This document shows positions 39,061-56,815 of a stretch of 64,000 nucleotides of DNA, piece after piece. Origin of the DNA: a virus (taxonomy: Duplodnaviria; Caudoviricetes); IMG/VR virus record IMGVR_UViG_3300032030_000005, positions 241,866 through 305,865 of that record; one strand, 5' to 3'. The notes under the pieces were generated by a model. The model did no database searches. It saw nothing but the letters and a program-made list of their open reading frames with translations, and was not told the origin of the DNA. The translations under genes were made by a program, and so were the position numbers. Numbering within the stretch: the stretch's first letter is position 1; every line of letters starts with the position of its first letter.

Positions 39061-39182
39061 CAAAAGTTATTATTAATCATTAATCTTTTTATAAAATAAT
39101 TTATAATATTGTATTTTATTAAAAAGCCTTTACCAAAAACAGCTATTTATAAAATATATTGAAAGAAAGGAAAGTGATATTT

Positions 39183-42100
39183 ATGAGCAAAATTATCAGA
39201 AAAGGTAACATCTTAGCTGAAAGTAATGACACTTGGATGGGTACTAAAGCTGAATATGAAGCTGTTAAAGAAACCATACCTTTTGGTACTAAGATAGTTA
39301 TTATTGATGGTGATAATAAAGGTGTATTCTTTATGCCTGAAGAGTCTATTGAACCATTAATTCAAACTGGTACAAAGGGTGATCCAGGTATAGGTATTAG
39401 AACTGCTAGTGTAAATCAGCAAGGTAATCTTATATTAACATTAACAAATAACACTCAAATAAATGCTGGTAAAGTTGTTGGTGCAGACGGTGCTGATGGT
39501 AAAAGTGTAACATCTGTTACAAAAACTAAAACTGAAGGCTTAGTAGATACATATACTGTTACATATACAGACGGTACTACAAATATCTTCACAGTTTCTA
39601 ATGGTGCAAATGGACAAGATGGTAAAGGTATAAAAAGTGTTACAAAAACTGCCACTGTAGAAAATGTAGATACATATACTATTAAATATACAGATAATTC
39701 TACAACTACATTTACCGTTACAAATGGTATTAATGGTGCCACAGGTGCAGCAGGTAAAGGTATAAAGACTATTGCAAAAACAGGTTCATCTGGCAAAATA
39801 GATACTTATACTATTACATATACTGATAATGCAACAACTACATTCTTAGTTACTAATGGTAGTGATGGTAGAAACGGTAATGATGGTGTTGGTATTGAAA
39901 GTATTGCTTTACAAGGTCATTTAGGAAATGTAGATACTTATGTAATTCAATATACTAATGATACTTCAACTACATTCAATGTTACAAATGGTATTAATGG
40001 TGTAGACGGTAATGATGGTAGTGATGGTATTTCTATTGTTAGTGCTGTTGTTAATGGACAAGGTGAACTTGTCCTCACATTAAGTGATGGTAATACTATT
40101 AATGCAGGTGAAGTTAAAGGTAAAGATGGTACTTCCATTAACATCATAGATAGCTTAAGTAGTTCAAGTCAGCTTCCTTCAACAGGACAAGTTAAAGGTG
40201 ACTCTTATTTAATCTCTGGTGACTTATGGGTATATACTAATAGTTCTGATCCAGACGCTGTTAATGGTTTTAAAAATGTAGGTAGAATTCAAGGACCTAC
40301 TGGTAAAGGTATTGTAAGTGCAAATATTACTGATGGTAAATTATATTTAACATATTCTGATTCAGCAACCCCAGTTTTAATAGGCGATGTTAGAGGTGAT
40401 ACTGGTAGAGGTATTTCAACTGTTGCCAAGACTGGTTCCGCTGGTTTAATAGATACTTATACTATTACATATACAGATGCAACTACCTCTACATTTACAG
40501 TAGTTAATGGTGCTAACGGTGCCACAGGTGCTGCTGGTAGAAGTGTAACCAATATTGCTAAAACAGGTAGTGCTGGTTTAGTAGATACTTATACTATTAC
40601 TTATTCAGATAGTACTACATCTACATATACAGTTACTAATGGTGCAAATGGTGAAGACGGCCAAGATGGTGTTGGCATTGCTTCTTTTGAAAAGACTGGT
40701 TCTGTAGGATTAGTAGATACATACACTATTACATATACAGATGGTAATACTGATACATTCACTGTTACTAATGGTGCAGATGGTGAAGATGGTTCTACAG
40801 GTGCAACTGGTGTAGGCATTGTTTCTGTAACAAAGACTAATACTTCAGGATTAGTAGATACATATACTATTACATTTAGTGATGATACAACTACTACATT
40901 CAATATTACTAATGGTGCTAATGGTTCTACAGGTGCTGCCGGTAGAGGTATTCAAGGTATTGCTAAAACAGGTACGGTATCAAATGTAGATACTTATACA
41001 GTAACTCTTACTGATGGCACAACTACAACATTTGATGTTACAAACGGTACTAATGGTGCAAACGGAATATCTGTTACAAATGCGACAATTAACTCTAGTG
41101 GTGAATTAATCTTCACATTCTCAGCTGGTGATCCTGTAAATGTAGGACGTGTTGTAGGTAATAACGGTGTATCAATTTCTAGTATAGCAAAGACTGATAC
41201 TGAAGGCTTAGTAGATACATATACTATTACATTTAGTGATAGTACAACTACAACATTTAATGTTACTAATGGTGCAAACGGTGCTGCAGGTGCAACTGGT
41301 AGAGGTATTCAAGGTATTGCTAAAACAAGTACTACTGGTTTAACTGATACATATACTATTACATATACAGATAACACTACATCAACTTATACAGTTGTTA
41401 ATGGTACTGTAGGTGCTACTGGTAAAGGAATTGCTGATATTTCTTATACATCAACTTCAGGATTAGAAGATACATATACTATTACATACACAGATGGTGA
41501 TACTGATACATTTGTAGTTACAAACGGTGCTGCAGGTGCAACTGGTAGAGGTATTGTTTCTATCACTAATACAGCTACAGAAGGATTAATTGATACATAC
41601 ACAATTGCTTATAGTAATGGTACAACTTCTACATTCACTGTTACTAATGGTGCTAAAGGTCAAGATGGTGCTAATGGTGCAGATGGTGATGATGGTAGAG
41701 GTATTGTTTCTGTTGCTAAAACAAGTACTTCAGGATTAGTAGATACATATACTATTACATATAGCGATAGTACTACATCTACATTCACTGTTACTAATGG
41801 TGCAGATGGTGCATCAGGTGGTATTGTACAACGTTATGTACCAAAGTATGCACACCGTGAAGGAAACGATGTTTATTTTGAAGCAAAGATTGATCCAGGT
41901 TGTGATTATGTATTCGATACCACCTCATACACTTGGACAGGTTTACAACCAAAGGATTCAAATGGCTCTAATACTCGTGGTGAAATAGCTCATGGTCCTA
42001 ATGATACAAGAGTTGCGTTTACCGCAGCATCAAATGAAACTCAATGTCAAATGCGATTCTATCCGGGTGTCGGTGTAGAATTTGATCAAATTGATTGGAC

Positions 42101-43295
42101 AAAGATTTCATTTATTAAAGTCGGTGAAACTGCGGCTGAATGTTCAGGTCATAATGCTGCTGATATTGAACGACTTGATGGTTCTGCAGTAATGCCTCCA
42201 AAACAATCAACAAATATTATTGATATTCTTGAAGGAGCTACACAAGCAAATCCTGTTAAGATTACACTTATGGGTGACTCAATTACAAATGGTTACTCTG
42301 CAGATAGTGGTAAATCTTGGGCTGCTTTATTAGAATCATATATCGAAAGCAAGTATCAGTATGTTACAGTAGTAAATACTGGTGTATCTGGATGGAAGAG
42401 TTCAGATGCTGTATCAAATCTTGAAACTGCATTACCATCTGGTACAACTGTTGCAATTGCAATGTTTGGTACAAACAACCGTCAAAGCCAAGCATATATG
42501 GATGCATTATATGGTGACTACACCACAATGTACAATCGTGCTAAGAGTATGGGTGCTAAGTTCATACCAATGTGCTGTACAGCAGAAACATTGGTAAATG
42601 AATCAATCACTGCAAAGTATGTTGCAACAATGGATGCTGTTGAACGTATTATCGCAAAATGGGCAGTGGATCATAATATGGAAATGATCAACCTTTACGA
42701 AGGTTTACTCAAGTACTGTAATTATGATTCGGATAAGTTTGATAAGCTGTTCAATCAAACAGAAACAACAACTGTCGGTGGTCAAACATATCCATTTCAC
42801 ATTCATCCGAATAATGATGGTCACTACATCATGTATCGTTTGATTTGTGAAGCTTTAGGATGCAATGCGCCAGTAGCTCAGTATACAGCACCAGTTGGCG
42901 GTGGCGGATCAACAAAATACTTACATAGAATATATCTCTATAGAAAAGGATACTATTATGTCGGATTTGATTTATATACAAGTTCAGATACATCATTCCA
43001 AGGTGATACTCAGGAAATGTTTAATGCACTTGCTGCAGAATTCACAGCTCAAAACTTTACTAACTTCTCATGGAGAAGTATTCCTCATGCAACTGGTTGG
43101 TATAGAGAAACATCTGATGGTACAGCTATTACAATTGGAGCGATATACTATGATGGTACTGATTTCGTTGGTATTCGTGAAGGTGTTTCATTAACAACAT
43201 TTAATAATGCTACAATCAAGCTCACTAACATGAAATCATTCACTACTGCACCAAAGGGTACTATATTTGATAATAATATCATAGCCATTGGTTAA
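39183..43295 (+). CDS. long tail fibre with collagen-like/DTYTITY repeats and an SGNH/GDSL hydrolase domain
   Basis: About 14 G.GI.SI.KT...GLVDTYTITY.D.TT.TF.VTNG repeats; GDSIT, GVSG, GTNN, IHPN SGNH blocks. Confidence 0.85.
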   Translation: MSKIIRKGNILAESNDTWMGTKAEYEAVKETIPFGTKIVIIDGDNKGVFFMPEESIEPLIQTGTKGDPGIGIRTASVNQQGNLILTLTNNTQINAGKVVGADGADGKSVTSVTKTKTEGLVDTYTVTYTDGTTNIFTVSNGANGQDGKGIKSVTKTATVENVDTYTIKYTDNSTTTFTVTNGINGATGAAGKGIKTIAKTGSSGKIDTYTITYTDNATTTFLVTNGSDGRNGNDGVGIESIALQGHLGNVDTYVIQYTNDTSTTFNVTNGINGVDGNDGSDGISIVSAVVNGQGELVLTLSDGNTINAGEVKGKDGTSINIIDSLSSSSQLPSTGQVKGDSYLISGDLWVYTNSSDPDAVNGFKNVGRIQGPTGKGIVSANITDGKLYLTYSDSATPVLIGDVRGDTGRGISTVAKTGSAGLIDTYTITYTDATTSTFTVVNGANGATGAAGRSVTNIAKTGSAGLVDTYTITYSDSTTSTYTVTNGANGEDGQDGVGIASFEKTGSVGLVDTYTITYTDGNTDTFTVTNGADGEDGSTGATGVGIVSVTKTNTSGLVDTYTITFSDDTTTTFNITNGANGSTGAAGRGIQGIAKTGTVSNVDTYTVTLTDGTTTTFDVTNGTNGANGISVTNATINSSGELIFTFSAGDPVNVGRVVGNNGVSISSIAKTDTEGLVDTYTITFSDSTTTTFNVTNGANGAAGATGRGIQGIAKTSTTGLTDTYTITYTDNTTSTYTVVNGTVGATGKGIADISYTSTSGLEDTYTITYTDGDTDTFVVTNGAAGATGRGIVSITNTATEGLIDTYTIAYSNGTTSTFTVTNGAKGQDGANGADGDDGRGIVSVAKTSTSGLVDTYTITYSDSTTSTFTVTNGADGASGGIVQRYVPKYAHREGNDVYFEAKIDPGCDYVFDTTSYTWTGLQPKDSNGSNTRGEIAHGPNDTRVAFTAASNETQCQMRFYPGVGVEFDQIDWTKISFIKVGETAAECSGHNAADIERLDGSAVMPPKQSTNIIDILEGATQANPVKITLMGDSITNGYSADSGKSWAALLESYIESKYQYVTVVNTGVSGWKSSDAVSNLETALPSGTTVAIAMFGTNNRQSQAYMDALYGDYTTMYNRAKSMGAKFIPMCCTAETLVNESITAKYVATMDAVERIIAKWAVDHNMEMINLYEGLLKYCNYDSDKFDKLFNQTETTTVGGQTYPFHIHPNNDGHYIMYRLICEALGCNAPVAQYTAPVGGGGSTKYLHRIYLYRKGYYYVGFDLYTSSDTSFQGDTQEMFNALAAEFTAQNFTNFSWRSIPHATGWYRETSDGTAITIGAIYYDGTDFVGIREGVSLTTFNNATIKLTNMKSFTTAPKGTIFDNNIIAIG

Positions 43296-44260: not shown

Positions 44261-44390
44261 AATAAAAGTCCTCCTTTAATATAATTATTTTCTTGGGATC
44301 ATAGAAATAATATTTCTACATGTATATAATATATATGTGAAAACCGTATCAAATGTAGATATTGAATATATATTATAATTGTGTAAAATA

Positions 44391-44435
44391 GAAACATTAA
44401 GTGACATGGACAGGTCACTATAATAAAAGGTCCAT
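44391..44435 (+). ncRNA. 5'-leader H-type pseudoknot motif, copy 1
   Basis: S1 AGTGAC(44400-05)/GTCACT(44414-19); S2 ATGGAC(44406-11)/GTCCAT(44430-35); second copy at 56235-56279. Confidence 0.7.
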
Positions 44436-44453
44436 CCATAAGGAGGTTATATT

Positions 44454-44672
44454 ATGGATATGACAATTACAATAACTACAAAATGCGATGAAAGAGAAGC
44501 GAGATACCTCTCAAAAGCGGCAGCTCGCGAGAAGGCACTTGAAGCTCTTAGACTTCTTAACATGATCGATAACAGAATGGATAAATTTAATAATGATTGG
44601 TCTGATATTGAGCAGGCTAAGACTTGTATCCGTTATGCTCTTGATCATTTGGATTCAGCTTTAGGAGAATAA
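44454..44672 (+). CDS. small early protein
   Basis: Own early promoter, AAGGAGG RBS and terminator; helical, contains AREKALE. Confidence 0.75.
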   Translation: MDMTITITTKCDEREARYLSKAAAREKALEALRLLNMIDNRMDKFNNDWSDIEQAKTCIRYALDHLDSALGE

Positions 44673-44804
44673 TCCTAAAGCTGAATTAGAAAAGTTAACC
44701 CAATCCGGATATGGTGAGGGTTAACTTTTTTAGTAATTTTTTTTAATTATATATTATATATGTGTCGATAAAAAGACGTTATTATTTCAAGGGGAGGAAT
44801 AGCA

Positions 44805-45958: not shown

Positions 45959-48016
45959 ATGAAAAAGAAAACTTTAAAAGAATTTGAAAATCAATTAATA
46001 TCTATAGATCCTGAATATTCATTAACTGAAAATAGTGTATATATAAATGATTCAACGCCTATTGAAATTAAACATAATAAATGTAATAATATTTTTATGA
46101 TGAGACCGGGTAAATTTATAGGAACTAAAAACACTAAAGGTAATAGATGTCCATATTGTTTTGGAACTCCTAAGAAAACATTAGAAGATATTAAAAATGA
46201 AGCATTAAATTATAATTGTGAAGTATTAAGTAAAGAATATATAAATAATAAAGAAAATTTAACATTTAAATGCTTAGAATGTAATAATATATTTGAAATG
46301 CCTTATAATAGATTTTCTAAAAAGGATATTGATATTAAATGTCCTGAATGTCGTAAGAAGAATAGAAAGAGTAATAAGACTGCTAATAATAAACTTATTA
46401 TAAAGAATACTGATTCTATTAATAATAAAAAAGAAGAAATTTTAAATTTTATAAAATCAATATATAATGGAAATATTAAAATCGATTTTAAAATTAAAGA
46501 GTTTAAAATTGATTTTTATATCCCTGAATATAAAATAGCATTTGATTTTGATAATTTATATTATCATTCAGAAAAATTTATATCTTCTAAAACATATCAT
46601 CTAGATAAAACTATATTTTGCAAAAATAATGATATAAGGCTTATTCATATTTTTGAAGATGAATGGGATAATAAACAAGAAATAGTTAAAGATAAAATAA
46701 CTTATTTATTAAAAAGATGTAATAATAAAATATATGCTAGAAAATGTGAAATTGTTTTATTAGATAAAAAAGATAAAGGAAAATTTTTAAATGAAAATCA
46801 TATTCAAGGAAATGATTCAGCTCAAATAAGTTTAGGATTAAAATATAATGATAAAATTGTAGCATGTATGACATTTTGCAAACAAAGAATCTGTATGTAT
46901 AAGAAAACTAATAATACAGATAAAAGTAATAAGTATGAATTGTCTAGATATACTACTTTAAAGAATCATTCAGTTATAGGTGGTTTTAGTAAATTATTTA
47001 AATATTTTATAAATAATTATAAATGTGATTATATTATAACTTATGCTGATATGAGATGGTCATTAGGAGATGTATATGAAGGATTGTTAACATATTCTCA
47101 TACTGCAAGGCCCGATTACTTTTATTTAGCTCCAGAAGATCGAACTAAAAGATTACATAGATATCAATTTAGAAAAACATCTATTAAAGAAAAATTTCCA
47201 AAAATATATTCAGATGAAAAAACTGAACGTGAAATGATGTTAGAAGCTGGTTATTTAAGAGTATATGGTTGTGGTAATTTAGTTTATACATGGGAGAGAT
47301 CTCATAAAAATTCAAAATATACTATTAATGAGGTAAGAAAATATATCAATTCAAATAAAGATTATGAATTGATATCTACTGAATATATTAATTATAAAGA
47401 GAAATTAAAAATTAGACATTTAGATCATGAATTTGAAATGTGTTTTGATTGTTTTAAAAATCAAAATCAAAGATGTCCAATTTGTAATGGTACTAAAAAA
47501 TATACTATTGAAGAAGTTAAAGAACTTATACATAAAACAGATAATGAATATATTTGTATATCGGATTCATATATTAATAATAAATCTAATATAAAAATTA
47601 AACATTTAACTTGTGGATATATTTATGAAGCTAATTTAAATAATTTCTTAAATAAAGAAAATAGATGTCCAAAATGTAAAAATATTTCTAAAGGTGAAAG
47701 AGATATTATGAAATTTTTGGATAAATATAATATACCTTATGAATATCGTTATAAAGGATTTAAAGATTGTAGAGATAAACGTACCTTAGAATTTGATTTT
47801 TATCTAAAACAATATAATCTTTGTATTGAATTTGATGGAGATTTTCATAGAGTAGAAGGCCGTTTTAAATCCATAGATACTTTAGAAAAATTAAAATTGC
47901 AACAAAAGCATGATAAAATAAAAGATGATTATTGTGAAAACAAAGGAATAAAATTAATAAGAATTCTTTATAGAAAAGATATTAAACCAACTCTTATTAA
48001 AGAATTAAATTTATAA
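45959..48016 (+). CDS. free-standing homing endonuclease with Zn-ribbon repeats, a Hef-like domain and a C-terminal Vsr/DUF559-like nuclease
   Basis: H..C...CPxC repeats; IDFYIP...YYHS...IYARKC...YADMRWS; FDFYL...CIEFDGDFH; very AT-rich. Confidence 0.75.
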   Translation: MKKKTLKEFENQLISIDPEYSLTENSVYINDSTPIEIKHNKCNNIFMMRPGKFIGTKNTKGNRCPYCFGTPKKTLEDIKNEALNYNCEVLSKEYINNKENLTFKCLECNNIFEMPYNRFSKKDIDIKCPECRKKNRKSNKTANNKLIIKNTDSINNKKEEILNFIKSIYNGNIKIDFKIKEFKIDFYIPEYKIAFDFDNLYYHSEKFISSKTYHLDKTIFCKNNDIRLIHIFEDEWDNKQEIVKDKITYLLKRCNNKIYARKCEIVLLDKKDKGKFLNENHIQGNDSAQISLGLKYNDKIVACMTFCKQRICMYKKTNNTDKSNKYELSRYTTLKNHSVIGGFSKLFKYFINNYKCDYIITYADMRWSLGDVYEGLLTYSHTARPDYFYLAPEDRTKRLHRYQFRKTSIKEKFPKIYSDEKTEREMMLEAGYLRVYGCGNLVYTWERSHKNSKYTINEVRKYINSNKDYELISTEYINYKEKLKIRHLDHEFEMCFDCFKNQNQRCPICNGTKKYTIEEVKELIHKTDNEYICISDSYINNKSNIKIKHLTCGYIYEANLNNFLNKENRCPKCKNISKGERDIMKFLDKYNIPYEYRYKGFKDCRDKRTLEFDFYLKQYNLCIEFDGDFHRVEGRFKSIDTLEKLKLQQKHDKIKDDYCENKGIKLIRILYRKDIKPTLIKELNL

Positions 48017-48100: not shown

Positions 48101-49900
48101 TTATACTCTGTCGTAAACAGAACCATCGTTGTTCTTGATAATTACCTTTGCAATGATCGGAACGAATTCTTCAATCGTGTCACGCTTTGTGAGCATGATT
48201 GAAGGAACATTCTGGTTAACAGTGTTAAGGTAGTTCTTAACAACGTTGAATGTATATGGATAGTATTCAAATGTCTTGAACTTATCTGTAGTTGGAACGA
48301 AGAACATTGTGAGTTCGCCCTGCGGAATAAGATCTGAAGATATGATTGTGTACTTATTTGCTCCAGAAATAGCACCGATAGAATACTGTACTTCTACACC
48401 ATTTTGCTGATCGTTAACAGAATTGAATGACCATGAAACATTAGGGAGAATATTTGTATCAATCGGATTACCAACGATTACAAAGTAACCATTATAGCAC
48501 TTATAATCGCCACGCATCTTAGTAGCAAGGAGATCGAAGAGCTTCTTAAGTTCATTGAGCCATTCAGATGGATTCATAGCGAAGTGACCTGATGGATAAA
48601 CGTTAAAGCTCTTTCTATACTGAGCCTGAGTACCAGCATAAGCTCTTTCAAGGAACTGATAAATTCTCTGGTCAACCTTTTGAGCACATACGTTTGACAT
48701 AATGTCAATGAGTTCTGCTGCACCATCAACCTGATACATAGCCTTAACATCCTGAAGGAATTCAAGAGGTAAGCTTGACTCGATGTGTTCGCCAACGCCG
48801 ATTTCGATATCTCTCTTGTCGATTTCGAAGTCAACATTAGTAGCCTTCTGATGTGTTTCAGATGAAAGGAATGCCATTACACGAATCTTAACAGCACGAC
48901 CAGACATTGATACGAATTCAAGGAAACCATTTTCAAGATCTACTGAACCGAAGATAGTATCCTTTGTAGAAATCATAGCACCCGTAGCATCATATTCTGT
49001 GAAGAATACATCAGCATAAAGTCTTCTATAGAGGTCAACCTTTGCATTAACCTTAATAGGTGTAACAACAACTGTTGTACCGTCAGCCTGTACTACTGGA
49101 TAGTAAACATCAGTAACTACAAACTTTCTATCAACAGCATATCTAGCATCATTTGTTGGATGCTTATGATCAAAGATCATTGAAGCTGTGAAGAGATTGA
49201 ACTTTTCAATCTTACCACCAACACCAAGCTGGATTTCACCCGGAATTGCAGCATCAGCAGCAGTTGGGTCAGCTTCTACAGCAGTTCTTGTAACTGGAGT
49301 AATAGCTGTAATACCATCCTTAGTGATTGTAGCCTTTGCAAAGAATTCACCAGCTGGATCTGTAGGATCTGTAGCAGGATCGAAGTCAGGGTTCTGAGCG
49401 AAACCTTCATTCATTGGAAGCTGATAAAGTTCAGCAAGTTCATTATCATACATGTTAAGGCATTCTGGGAGATAGTGCTTTGTCTTACCATCTGCACCAA
49501 GAATATATGGCTTCATGAATGCAACTGAGAAAGCTGGAACTGTAACAGGTTCTGTAGGGATAGCATACTTAAGTGAAAGTCTAGCCCAAAGCTTTACAAG
49601 AATAGGCATTGTAAGTGAAGCGTAAGGCTGTACACCTTCAAGAGATTCTGTAAGAATATTTTCTCTTGTAGAATCTGCCATTTCCTTAAGCTGAGCCATT
49701 TCTGTAGCTTCGAAACCTTCACAAAGATGATTCATGTAATCCTCGTAAAGTACGTTATCTGTAAGAATATCTTCAAAGTTCTTACCAATAATATTGGTCT
49801 GATGTCTCTGAGCGAAGTAATCTTGAGTTTCATTAAGACGTCTTGAGAAAGCGTCTGTTGGTGAAGATGTAGTCATCTTCTTCTGATAAATAACACTCAT
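48101..49900 (-). CDS. major capsid protein precursor (AR9-like)
   Basis: 599 aa; strongest high-expression codon bias in the window; late promoter 50009-50020; ILTE|S candidate cleavage near residue 85; overall resemblance to jumbo-phage MCPs. Confidence 0.7.
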   Translation of the reverse strand: MSVIYQKKMTTSSPTDAFSRRLNETQDYFAQRHQTNIIGKNFEDILTDNVLYEDYMNHLCEGFEATEMAQLKEMADSTRENILTESLEGVQPYASLTMPILVKLWARLSLKYAIPTEPVTVPAFSVAFMKPYILGADGKTKHYLPECLNMYDNELAELYQLPMNEGFAQNPDFDPATDPTDPAGEFFAKATITKDGITAITPVTRTAVEADPTAADAAIPGEIQLGVGGKIEKFNLFTASMIFDHKHPTNDARYAVDRKFVVTDVYYPVVQADGTTVVVTPIKVNAKVDLYRRLYADVFFTEYDATGAMISTKDTIFGSVDLENGFLEFVSMSGRAVKIRVMAFLSSETHQKATNVDFEIDKRDIEIGVGEHIESSLPLEFLQDVKAMYQVDGAAELIDIMSNVCAQKVDQRIYQFLERAYAGTQAQYRKSFNVYPSGHFAMNPSEWLNELKKLFDLLATKMRGDYKCYNGYFVIVGNPIDTNILPNVSWSFNSVNDQQNGVEVQYSIGAISGANKYTIISSDLIPQGELTMFFVPTTDKFKTFEYYPYTFNVVKNYLNTVNQNVPSIMLTKRDTIEEFVPIIAKVIIKNNDGSVYDRV

Positions 49901-53512: not shown

Positions 53513-56089
53513 TTATTCTTCAGCATATTCGACTTCTTCACCATCAGATGTGTAATAATTACCATCTGAACCAAGCCATACATCATTTTCTTCATCGATA
53601 CATTCTACAAGGTTAATTCCTTCTTCCTCTTCAACTTCCTCTACAATAGAAGCATTAGTAACATCACTACCAAGATCCTTATCAAGATAGTTTTCTGAAT
53701 TAGGAATAAACTTTACATAGTTTTCTTTAACAAGTCTTGCAACTTCCTTCTGAAGATTCTTATTCTCAAGGAACTTCTCTTTAAAAGTCTTTAGTGTGAA
53801 TTTAACATCAGGACAACCTTCGAGATAATAAGCTCTTGGAGATCCCTTAAGAAGTCCTAATTCCTTAAAGTTAGCAAGGTTAGATAAAATATTATCAAAA
53901 CCATTTGCCTGTGAGAATATCATTTCAAATGATCTACCAGCTTCATTAGATCTAGATTTAACAAATTCACCCTTAACAACAAAGCCTTTAATTCCATATG
54001 TATCCTTTTCTTCAAGCTTTGTTGATGTTGTGCATCTAATGATATTATTTGCTAAGTACAATATCGAACTGCCTCCAGGAATACTTTCCATATAAGTCAT
54101 ATGAAATCGCTACTTTCATACCGTTCTCTTATGAACTGCTCTAATTTTATATATAGTTAGAGATAAGACTATATCTTCAGACGTATATGGCTAATACGTA
54201 CTGCTCCCCATTTCGATTTAATCAGGAATTACTAGATTATTACTCTATACCTGAACCACTTGGCTCTACTCTACTCCCTTCTTCAATCCTTCTTAGGATT
54301 TATGGTTTCGATAGTCGTTGAACTTTATTATTTCTTCACTTAATTCTTGTTCTATTGTTCTAAGATTATCTAATATAATTAAATTATAACCAAGTTTTTT
54401 TGCTAATAATTTCTTATTATTATCAATTTTTATTCGTTGTTCTAAATCTTTATCTGTCATACACCATTTTTTCTTTCTATGTTGCTCTCCTTGAAATTCA
54501 ATTAATAGATTAAAATCTTCAATATAAAAATCATATGGTTTATTAGATAGATATTTATTAGATTTAATTGAATAATTATAAATATAAGAATAATTATTTT
54601 TTATTAAAAATTTTTCAATTATAGTTTCACCTATTGATTTATTAGAACAATATTTACATTTTACATGCCTATTAATAAATGAATCATATGATAATTCTAA
54701 AATATGATTACATGGTAAGTGTTTTATTTGTAATAGTTGTTTACAATTATCATAATCTTGTTTATTAGAAGTTAAAATATATTCATTATCAAATTCATTT
54801 ATAATTGTATCTAAATTTTCTTTAATATATTCTTTTTTGCCATTTGTAGTATTACAGCTACATTTAGGACAAGAAATGTTACTTTTATTAGATAAAATAT
54901 GTTGAAATTCTCTATTAAAGATAAAATTACATTTTCTACATTGTAAAGAAACTTTATCTTTATTTGAATTTGGTATTTTAATTATAACAAAATCATCATT
55001 TAACATTTTAGTTAATTTATCTATAGCTTTGTCTTTTTTACTTTTAACGTGATTACATATAGGACATCTATTTCCATTTGAAATAAAATTATTAGGCTTA
55101 ATTTTCCAAATATAACCACATTTATTATGTTTACATGATATTTCTGTTGAATTATTAACATAATTTTCTAAAAATGTATAATCATTTCCAACTAAATTAT
55201 AAATTTCATTAATAAATTCTTCATTTGTTTTCTTTTTAGGCATTTAATCACTTCCTTTCTAGAGAAGTGAAGAAATAATCTTAGCTGCTGATTGTCTTTA
55301 AATAAAGAGTTCCCAGCAATTAAAGGAGTTTATACAGGACTCAAAATTCCGTTAATCCTGTTTAAGATAGTTAATGGCTGCCTGTGTCTTAGCAAAAGCA
55401 TTAATTTCAATCTTCTGTGTGATATGGTTAATAGCTATTAAAGTAATATTACCTCTTTCAAGAGAACCAGCAATTCTTTTAATAACAGCGTTATTAACCT
55501 TTGCGATAGAAGTTGCTGACATTGAACCACTAAGCTTTTCTTCTTCAGAGATATCTTCAGGCATCATCAATGCCCAGCTATCTAATAGAATAACTGTTGG
55601 TGGAAGCATATAAATTGGATTACCCTTACTATCTTTTTTACCAGTATCTATTTTAAATTCATCATAATTTTCAGGTGTATTCTTAAGTTTATCAATAGCC
55701 TTTACAATCTTGTAAATAGATTCTGAATAGATATTTCTCTGAAGTATCTTATACTTTTTTTCTATAACTTCATCTGACCATCCTGAGAGAGTCTTAATTC
55801 TAGCATAGTTAGTTGCTCTTTCAAAGTCATAATGGAATACAGAACCGTTTTCATAAGGAGCTACCATAGCACAAGCCATCTGAATAGCCATTGTAGATTT
55901 ACCTGAACCTGACTTACCGATAACAGTGATAATTTTACCACCATCAAATCCAGTAGTTACTTCTCCTTTTTCAATTCTACCATTACGATAATCCATAACA
56001 TCAATACCGCTTGAGAATGTAGGTGTATATTCTACTGACTCACCAAGGTTTTCTTTTTCAATTGTATTGTTGATTAAATCAAATAACAT
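53513..56089 (-). CDS. recA: RecA/UvsX-like recombinase, two exons (56089-55355 and 54088-53513; 436 aa spliced)
   Basis: Walker A GKSGSGKS, DFE, Walker B ILLDS, INH; spliced junction KQD|ESIPGG matches the RecA ETTPGG loop; VKSR. Confidence 0.85.
54089..55354 (-). mobile_element. group I intron (IA-like) in recA
   Basis: P1 CAGGAU/GUCCUG with U-G splice pair; P AAUUGCUGGGAA, Q AAUCAGCAG, R GUUCAACGACUA, S AAGAUAUAGUCU; terminal G at 54089; splicing restores the frame. Confidence 0.92.
54293..55243 (-). CDS. intron-encoded homing endonuclease (Zn-ribbon repeats plus Vsr/DUF559-like nuclease)
   Basis: Three H/C..C...CxxC repeats; PYDFYI...LIEFQGEQH; 3' end runs through the intron R element. 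Confidence 0.8.
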   Translation of the reverse strand: MPKKKTNEEFINEIYNLVGNDYTFLENYVNNSTEISCKHNKCGYIWKIKPNNFISNGNRCPICNHVKSKKDKAIDKLTKMLNDDFVIIKIPNSNKDKVSLQCRKCNFIFNREFQHILSNKSNISCPKCSCNTTNGKKEYIKENLDTIINEFDNEYILTSNKQDYDNCKQLLQIKHLPCNHILELSYDSFINRHVKCKYCSNKSIGETIIEKFLIKNNYSYIYNYSIKSNKYLSNKPYDFYIEDFNLLIEFQGEQHRKKKWCMTDKDLEQRIKIDNNKKLLAKKLGYNLIILDNLRTIEQELSEEIIKFNDYRNHKS

Positions 56090-56234
56090 AATAGTACCTC
56101 CGTAAAATTGTCTTAAATTTTTTTAAATTATGAAAAATCAATTTTCATATTTCTATGTTGAACCTAGAATTTTTCTTTTAATTTGAAAATCGTATTAAAT
56201 TGAGTTTCTGAATATATATTATAATTGTGAAGAA

Positions 56235-56279
56235 GAAACATAAGTGACATAGACAGGTCACTATAATAAAAGGTCTCAT
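56235..56279 (+). ncRNA. 5'-leader H-type pseudoknot motif, copy 2
   Basis: S1 AGTGAC(56243-48)/GTCACT(56257-62); S2 AGAC(56251-54)/GTCT(56273-76), compensatory relative to copy 1. Confidence 0.7.
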
Positions 56280-56298
56280 AATAATGGAGGTATTTATT

Positions 56299-56700
56299 AT
56301 GATGTTAGCTAGCAAATATTCAAGACTGTTTAAACAGGGTACAGTAGTTTCCCCTAACGAGGAAAACTACACTCTTAACAAAATGTTCCATCCTGAGCTT
56401 AAATTTATAAAGTTCAAGGATGGTTCATATCTTGGAACAAACAGTTCAGACTTTGAGTTATTAAAGAAAACTGTTTCTGCTGAAATTGCTCGTGAAAAAG
56501 CTTTCGAAAAAGCAAAAGAAGCCGCTGCAAAAGATTCGAAGGAATCGAGATATGAATATATCTCATTGGTTCTAAGTAAGTATTCGTCTGAAATTAATTT
56601 TGGAAAAATGAATACTCATGAAGTTGAAGTACTTGTGTACTCAATTTCAAATAGGGAAGACTTTGAAGTAGCCGTTTTGAATGCATTTGGACTGATCTAA
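56299..56700 (+). CDS. early hypothetical protein
   Basis: Own early promoter 56215-56222, GGAGG RBS and terminator 56704-56745; contains AREKAFE. Confidence 0.75.
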   Translation: MMLASKYSRLFKQGTVVSPNEENYTLNKMFHPELKFIKFKDGSYLGTNSSDFELLKKTVSAEIAREKAFEKAKEAAAKDSKESRYEYISLVLSKYSSEINFGKMNTHEVEVLVYSISNREDFEVAVLNAFGLI

Positions 56701-56815
56701 AAAAAAATCAGGTAATTCACATTAGTGGGTTGCCTGATTTTTTTCGTAATTTTTTTTTATTTATATATTATATATTTGGTTATAAACCAAATTATATTTT
56801 AAAGGAGGAAAATAA

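Follow-up and report, generated by a model that had tools for sequence, protein, structure and literature searches.

In the final 64 kb of a phage record (IMGVR_UViG_3300032030_000005; the whole 64,000-nucleotide stretch that was analysed, positions 241,866–305,865, is called the window here), we found that two early genes carry in their leaders a compact H-type RNA pseudoknot, placed just upstream of the Shine-Dalgarno (SD) sequence, and that these two leaders belong to a family of seven copies in the phage genome. Both helices of the pseudoknot covary across eight sequences, in agreement with an earlier note on this DNA that had proposed the fold for early-gene leaders, and on the strength of this alignment we are confident that the pseudoknot forms as plus-strand RNA. 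The element constitutes a new RNA family, one that Rfam 15 lacks, although the general kind to which it belongs, leader pseudoknots, is already known.

The earlier note had picked out window positions 44391–44435 (copy A) and 56235–56279 (copy B) as one repeated leader. Both stretches are present. Their shared 33-nt core has two occurrences in the window, with a single difference between them, where 100 shuffles gave an expectation of 0, and the entire 305,865-bp genome likewise has two. The core was thus described correctly, but not its extent, since the promoter and an upstream element are also shared; the common region covers ∼110 nt, from ∼40 nt upstream of the promoter to four bases past an A-rich linker. 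The element is also not confined to two genes, as had been thought. Listing the sequence behind each copy of the promoter yielded four extra leaders, and a structural scan combined with a look downstream of one promoter-linked gene yielded a seventh copy. A covariance model built from the seven copies gave exactly seven matches in the genome, at 41.8–54 bits, and the next best match scored 15.6 bits.

In genome coordinates, the copies lie at about 68891, 228042, 229664, 239745, 286265 (copy A, window 44400, spanning 44400–44435) and 298108 (copy B, window 56243, spanning 56243–56276) on the plus strand and at about 115710 on the minus strand. An early promoter stands ahead of six of the seven. 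The remaining one, at 229664, is intercistronic: it begins 21 nt past the stop codon of a 513-amino-acid (aa) gene and precedes a 44-codon open reading frame (ORF), with neither a promoter nor the GAAACAU motif of the other leaders. This copy indicates that the element is tied to the ribosome-binding site and not to the 5′ end of the message, and the idea of a 5′ cap put forward in the earlier note fails on it.

All eight sequences of our alignment (the seven paralogues and one orthologous leader, L082) have the same order of parts: helix S1 of 5–7 bp, an 8-nt loop, an A-rich linker of 9–12 nt and a 4–6-nt strand of helix S2. In all copies this S2 3′ strand is complementary to loop positions 2–7. 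The geometry is that of a classical H-type pseudoknot: the first loop has 1–2 nt, a single nucleotide separates the helices, and the third loop, rich in A, would be long enough to span the S1 minor groove. The 3′ edge of the knot lies 4–9 nt ahead of AGGAGG and 17–22 nt ahead of the AUG in 8/8 sequences, and the SD is outside the knot in every copy.

Copy A can be followed on the plus strand from an S1 hairpin at 44400–44419 (arms 44400–44405 and 44414–44419, loop 44406–44413), which RNAfold predicts, through the A-rich linker at 44420–44429 (loop 3, A-rich in all eight sequences) to the S2 3′ strand at 44430–44434, whose pairing with loop bases 44407–44411 is supported by covariation; the SD (44440–44446) and the start codon (44454–44456) are read directly from the sequence. 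Copy B, also on the plus strand, has its S1 hairpin at 56243–56262 (arms 56243–56248 and 56257–56262, loop 56249–56256), with loop bases 56251–56254 as the S2 5′ strand, followed by the linker at 56263–56272 as placed by the alignment, the S2 3′ strand at 56273–56276, again from covariation, the SD at 56286–56290 and the start codon at 56299–56301. A gap of 5–6 nt between knot and ribosome-binding site had been reported for both copies; in copy B the knot in fact ends 9 nt before GGAGG.

A small set of bases is invariant in the eight sequences. In S1 these are the A-U and C-G pairs that border the junction; in S2, the A of the pair on the junction side; outside the helices, a U in the first loop and three columns of A in the linker. 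The rest of both helices varies freely with pairing kept. The single junction nucleotide is variable (G, A or C), and copies A and B have an A.G mismatch for the S2 pair next to it. The calculated helix energies run from −3.4 to −6.4 kcal/mol for S1 and from +0.2 to −7.9 kcal/mol for the S2 duplex, and no alternative fold that would hide the SD was consistent across the single-sequence folds.

The first argument for the fold had been a compensatory change between copies A and B. The substitutions G44408→A56251 and C44433→T56276 do turn a G-C pair of S2 into A-U, as claimed; on its own this change carries little weight, because the second of the two substitutions falls where the copies first diverge. 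We therefore rely on pair counts over the alignment of eight sequences. Standard pairs occupied 94.3% of cells, and double-sided changes were seen in 8 of the 11 pairs (21 cells). Both helices contributed, S1 being 96% paired with four of six pairs covarying and S2 92.5% paired with four of five. None of 500 shuffles reached the observed pairing percentage or covariation score, and when the 3′ partners were slid by 1–3 columns as a control, pairing was 24–43% with 0–2 covarying pairs. These counts come from copies that are paralogues of one genome and from which the structure itself was derived, which makes the orthologue L082 the key test.

L082 was obtained by protein homology alone, with the 133-aa protein behind copy B as the query. 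It is a metagenome contig of 1,358 nt whose DNA is 90.7% identical to window 55355–56707 and whose protein is an orthologue of 83% identity. Its promoter and first 12 leader nucleotides are those of copy B, and from there to the SD the identity collapses. The S1 arms are CAAGAC/GUCUUG compared with AGUGAC/GUCACU in copy B, amounting to three double changes in the outer pairs; the S2 strands are GAGCA/UGCUU compared with AGAC/GUCU, amounting to two double changes and one single change. All helix changes between the two were compensated, and the spacing was retained. This comparison indicates that the fold is conserved at the same site before the same gene, whatever the route of replacement. The 45-nt knot itself (L082 885–930 against window 56235–56290) is ∼60% identical despite flanks of 91% and is a mosaic of paralogue motifs. 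Because its linker and loop resemble those of the 228k and 229k paralogues, conversion between copies, and not point mutation, may have replaced the knot.

The strand could also be read from the alignment. Five cells are G.U on the plus strand, and one mismatch cell would be G.U on the minus strand. This asymmetry, the divergence of the arms and the fact that S2 has no meaning in duplex DNA argue that the element is plus-strand RNA. A minus-strand terminator-like call made by a simple scan corresponds to the A-rich leader read backwards.

The earlier note had also placed the element outside named families, and our searches bear this out. With gathering thresholds, Rfam 15 had no match in the 64-kb window; when the cut-off was relaxed to E ≤ 10 for the six loci that together carry the seven copies, 15 weak matches appeared, and none of them overlaps a knot. 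No match of the covariance model exceeded 19 bits in the nearest complete relative, a genome of 265 kb whose head protein is 85% identical, in three other IMG/VR relatives or in AR9, LPJP1, BpSp and AH12. A structural descriptor gave eight matches in this genome, seven of them the family, two in the nearest relative and one in AR9, with 0–2 in reversed-sequence controls. Scanning viral contigs for the promoter plus the GAAACAU pattern returned 30 loci, none with a knot, and the exact type-2 linker pattern had no match in them; in the metagenome contigs, no knot was present among 80 loci of at least 115 stretches. The element and its cargo genes are so far restricted to one phage lineage. Apart from the family, we noticed a sub-threshold Rfam match to the ribosomal S15 leader at window 42959–43077 on the plus strand (27.8 bits against a gathering threshold of 39.5, E = 0.003), which lies inside a 1378-aa ORF (39159–43295) and is probably a chance match.

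The record comprises 305,865 bp with a G+C content of 27% and is rated complete by CheckV. The major head protein shares 51% identity with its counterpart in the Bacillus phages AR9 and PBS1, and the window encodes an RNA polymerase beta-like subunit (phrog_3015, E = 3.5e-65), a DNA polymerase and a helicase, a gene set that is typical of the AR9 group of jumbo phages. Judged by these genes, the record is an AR9/PBS1-like jumbo phage with a multisubunit RNA polymerase and a member of the AR9/PBS1 group.

The early promoter of AR9, which is read by the virion RNA polymerase, has been defined experimentally as AAATATATATTAT-(6N)-G+1 (PMC5312081). The promoters of copy A (44364–44383) and copy B (56210–56229), both on the plus strand, match this consensus at 12 of 13 positions plus the G, so that the promoter which the earlier note had placed ahead of each copy is of the AR9 early type. 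By analogy with the AR9 promoter, we infer that the two transcripts start at G44383 and G56229. The motif occurs ∼55 times genome-wide, ahead of genes.

Further upstream we found a second promoter element, YYGTAW, at exactly −39 from the inferred start in copy A (44344–44349, plus strand) and likewise at −39 in copy B (56190–56195, plus strand). Each of the six promoter-linked pseudoknot leaders has it, but of the 55 predicted early promoters only a minority do. The sub-class that it marks pairs YYGTAW with an extended ...TATAATT(G/A)TG form and is used by 6/6 of the promoter-linked pseudoknot leaders; the −39 element is outside the published AR9 early consensus. This marked sub-class suggests a co-regulated gene set.

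Downstream of the start, the GAAACAU motif forms an unpaired part of the 5′ leader in copy A (44391–44397, plus strand) and is read at 56235–56241 (plus strand) in copy B. It lies 7–10 nt past +1 in five of the six promoter-linked copies and appears as a variant in the sixth and in the orthologue. Genome-wide it is not enriched (85 occurrences against 72 expected). We considered whether GAAACAU is an AR9-type late promoter (AACA-6N-TA/G) and rejected this, as the spacing and the T-A/G positions misfit in most copies.

The early leaders of this phage are structured more widely. Among the 55 predicted, 28 open with a hairpin at +1 to +3; examples in the window have inferred starts at 44764, 56778, 60684 and 62753 on the plus strand and at 44319 on the minus strand. 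This suggests that the early mRNAs of the phage generally need a 5′-terminal structure. The pseudoknot leaders lack a +1 hairpin, their first paired base lying at +14 to +25 with 13–24 unpaired nucleotides ahead of it. Given the hairpins in about half of the early leaders and their absence from the pseudoknot leaders, we take 5′ structure to be the rule in the early leaders of this phage, to which the knot may be an alternative solution.

The genes behind the knots have little in common. Copy A precedes an early gene for a 72-aa ORFan (44454–44672, plus strand) and copy B one for a 133-aa ORFan (56299–56700, plus strand), neither with a Pfam or PHROG family; that the two are unrelated, as the earlier note had stated, was confirmed by BLASTP (E = 37). 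The seven downstream genes are mutually dissimilar and show no metabolic theme, and no Pfam or PHROG family was found among the proteins downstream of the knots. Six of these proteins have no homologue in the nearest complete relative and no paralogue in their own genome, and a homologue search with the 99-aa downstream protein returned itself alone. The sole homologue of the copy A protein, 76% identical, is on one short contig (L083) that begins at the SD and hence has no leader to compare; on another contig, L212, copy A is unchanged.

The cassettes each comprise a single gene together with a promoter and a terminator. The copy A cassette ends in a hairpin and T-run read from the sequence past the stop codon (44695–44731, plus strand), whose loop exceeds the reach of a simple terminator scan, and the copy B cassette ends in an intrinsic-terminator-like hairpin that the scan did detect (56701–56744, plus strand). 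At the 239745 copy, 2 kb before the window (genome 239745–239860), a 10-codon ORF is followed directly by a terminator hairpin; the unit represents a decayed cassette or, alternatively, a stand-alone unit for a small RNA or a micro-peptide.

As to function, we favour, tentatively and at rather less than even confidence, a ligand-free cis-acting module for translation initiation, mRNA protection or both. The knot and a strong SD would together form one portable translation-initiation module on early ORFan genes transcribed by the virion RNA polymerase. With its 3′ edge 17–22 nt before the AUG, the knot would lie where the 30S footprint ends on its 5′ side, adjoining the SD:anti-SD helix; there it would keep the ribosome site clear of upstream pairing, present a structured partner to the platform side of the ribosome and, in an RNase J-type host, bar 5′-to-3′ decay. 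The outcome would be strong and lasting early-gene expression, including that of the downstream cistron at the intercistronic copy. The conserved junction and linker bases lie where A-minor triples would be expected to stabilise such a knot. Our preference rests on the 5′-hairpin habit of the other leaders and on two precedents: in Bacillus, 5′-proximal structures and strong ribosome sites stabilise mRNA (PMC3997798), and translation of the plasmid gene repZ requires a pseudoknot just upstream of the ribosome-binding site (Asano and Mizobuchi 1998, as summarised in PMC8383071).

Four observations weigh against this preference. The helices are weak, unlike an exonuclease roadblock, unless tertiary contacts add much; the conserved unpaired bases and GAAACAU are superfluous structurally and would better fit a binding site; only 6 of the ∼55 early promoters carry the element, which is regulon-like; and the family was detected in one phage lineage only. 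A further reading, possible and less probable than the cis module, takes the pseudoknot-plus-SD unit as an unrecognised phage initiation signal that is read by the ribosome platform or by a phage regulator and under which ORFans for host takeover or anti-defence would form a post-transcriptional regulon. As a sub-variant of it, the element could be the first bacterial RNase J-resistant counterpart of xrRNAs, the exonuclease-resistant viral pseudoknots.

The main rival of the cis module, in our view somewhat unlikely, is an operator. The knot, perhaps with GAAACAU, would bind a trans-acting phage or host protein 4–9 nt from the SD and, by blocking or promoting 30S entry, switch a small regulon of early ORFans jointly off or on, much as T4 gp32 or RegA do. 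The conserved junction pairs, loop U and A, and A-rich linker beside freely varying helices are what such a site would show, as are a second conserved motif upstream in six leaders, the restriction to the −39 sub-class of early promoters and weak helices that a protein could stabilise; the pseudoknot operator of T4 gene 32 is a phage precedent (PMC3014915). However, the conserved bases are equally explicable as tertiary contacts, in the form of A-minor triples between linker and S1 junction, and the intercistronic copy lacks GAAACAU. A candidate protein was not found: the S21, CsrA and cold-shock families are absent, in a phage most of whose genes are of unknown function, and a RegA profile had no match in the phage, but the control for RegA likewise had none.

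The gene 32 operator of T4 and T2 is a coaxial H-type knot ∼67 nt before the start codon, from which gp32 binds cooperatively along an unstructured A+U-rich tract (PMC3014915). Our element resembles it in being a compact H-type knot in a phage leader, with two stems upstream of the ribosome site, and probably a cis element at the level of translation or mRNA stability. It differs in the 17–22 nt from knot to AUG, without a long A+U-rich tract, and in standing before seven unrelated ORFans, whereas the gp32 knot controls the regulator's own gene.

Closer to the cis module is the repZ/repA knot of IncI-alpha and IncB plasmids, in which an antisense RNA binds the loop and the knot is coupled to a leader peptide (PMC8383071). 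There, as here, a hairpin loop pairs with a segment directly 5′ of the ribosome-binding site, which makes it the best precedent for a knot that aids initiation rather than hiding the site. It occupies one locus per plasmid, in contrast to the dispersed family described here, and no leader ORF is evident in our leaders.

Two further systems offer partial likenesses to the cis module. In Cluster K mycobacteriophages, the SAS is a conserved 13-nt sequence that includes the SD, and the ESAS adds a conserved inverted repeat (PMC3203893); they lie near the start codons of some non-structural genes and have been proposed to act in translation initiation (PMC3203893). They share with our family a repeated element fixed a few bases from the starts of phage genes of unrelated families. 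The difference is in what is conserved: there a sequence, here the pairing of two helices whose sequence is free. In the 5′ stabilisers of Bacillus subtilis (5′ hairpins and strong SD-like sites; PMC3997798), and in xrRNAs, a structure, a bound ribosome or both near the 5′ end shields the message behind it from 5′-to-3′ decay, as the knot may do here. The knot described here, by contrast, is away from the 5′ end and thermodynamically weak. We know of no bacterial pseudoknot that acts as an RNase J block.

The earlier note had also suggested a ligand sensor, and we consider a riboswitch of the preQ1-I or SAM-II type, in which a junction-bound ligand stabilises S2, improbable. The layout does invite the comparison: it is compact, with a marginally stable S2 and about a dozen conserved positions, and in part order, size, ∼5-bp P1-like stem, A-rich tail and short second helix close to the SD it resembles preQ1-I (RF00522). 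The hairpin loop of preQ1-I has ∼11–13 nt and holds L1, one P2 strand and L2 with a conserved, ligand-pairing C. Here the loop is 8 nt in 8/8 sequences and leaves no room for a ligand pocket, L2 being one junction nucleotide that is itself variable, and copies A and B have the A.G mismatch at the junction S2 pair. Nor did any Rfam riboswitch, RF00522 included, match even at E ≤ 10. In preQ1-I the 3′ strand of P2 overlaps the SD or a terminator, and the element is associated with queuosine or transport genes; here the SD lies outside every knot, and the ORFans behind the knots are unrelated to one another and have neither a queuosine connection nor any metabolic theme.

Slightly less probable again, and in our judgement very unlikely, is that the repeat acts as DNA, driving recombination and shuffling of ORFans in the manner of the PeSLs of T4-type phages, with the RNA fold incidental. 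PeSLs are stem-loops that lie in or beside a sigma-70-type promoter and act as terminators (PMC2839356); they are the precedent for this view. The likeness lies in repeated cassettes of early promoter and structure before small ORFans in variable regions, with signs of shuffling: each unit is a single gene provided with promoter and terminator, the nearest complete relative lacks these genes, and the orthologous leader is a mosaic of other paralogues. The promoter here is, however, of the AR9 virion RNA polymerase type, and the knot is within the transcribed leader near the SD, followed by A-rich and not U-rich sequence. Moreover, recombination needs identity, but the helices have diverged and yet remain complementary in two helices, with G.U on one strand; such a pattern is unexpected without selection on RNA, and both roles could coexist.

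We give still less credence to a decoy, in which the knots would inhibit a host RNA-targeting defence, for example as a pseudo-antitoxin for the endoribonuclease of a type III toxin-antitoxin system. Early expression, A-rich segments around a small pseudoknot and the resemblance of the 239745 copy to a small stand-alone RNA would fit this, and ToxI-type antitoxins are themselves pseudoknots (work cited in PMC3997798). The copies, however, are dispersed rather than tandem, every one is locked to a ribosome site at a fixed distance, and no ToxI-type match was found in Rfam. Least credible of all is a feature of DNA or of the minus strand, be it a palindromic operator near the promoter or a weak minus-strand intrinsic terminator made of S1 and its T-rich complement: S1 is an inverted repeat 17–25 nt downstream of +1 and a simple scan marks S1 and its tail as terminator-like, but the arms differ between copies, which excludes a sequence-specific DNA operator, S2 covariation has no DNA explanation, the G.U asymmetry is 5 to 1 for the plus strand, no minus-strand gene reaches the sites and one copy lies between two plus-strand genes.

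Very few cases are known of structured leaders that control phage early genes, and gene 32 has been described as possibly the sole viral pseudoknot used in translational autoregulation (PMC3014915). The seven natural variants of this one genome, together with the orthologous replacement, provide a ready compensatory-mutation series. A knot that does set translation or stability would serve Firmicutes-type hosts as a compact, portable expression part of ∼45 nt and, in AR9-like jumbo phages, would be a marker of co-regulated early unknowns. It would also give a handle on how jumbo-phage early mRNAs survive past the loss of the 5′ triphosphate, a loss noted for AR9 early mRNAs (PMC5312081).

Several neighbouring features were noted in passing. 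An early leader 7.4 kb before the window (L080 164–250, genome 234474 onward) has an 11-bp stem from +2, and five bases of its 8-nt loop pair past a 16-nt linker, 12 nt before the SD, as a long-stem variant of the knot. The gene behind it encodes 108 aa (phrog_5063) with a sub-threshold Pfam match to STIV_B116-like, the AcrIII-1 family (20.8 against 26 bits, E = 4e-4), so that this neighbouring variant precedes a possible AcrIII-1-like gene. Within the window, a 685-aa ORF at 45959–48016 on the plus strand has strong matches to HNH/homing-endonuclease PHROGs (phrog_559, E = 2.4e-143), and the major head gene (48101–49900, minus strand) adjoins it. Elsewhere in the genome, on the minus strand (L081 790–1030, genome ∼150333 downward), a structured RNA of ∼250 nt without an ORF lies behind an early promoter; it has a 14-bp stem, a loop of which 8 nt are complementary to downstream sequence, more hairpins and two terminator-like hairpins, and is a candidate phage non-coding RNA.

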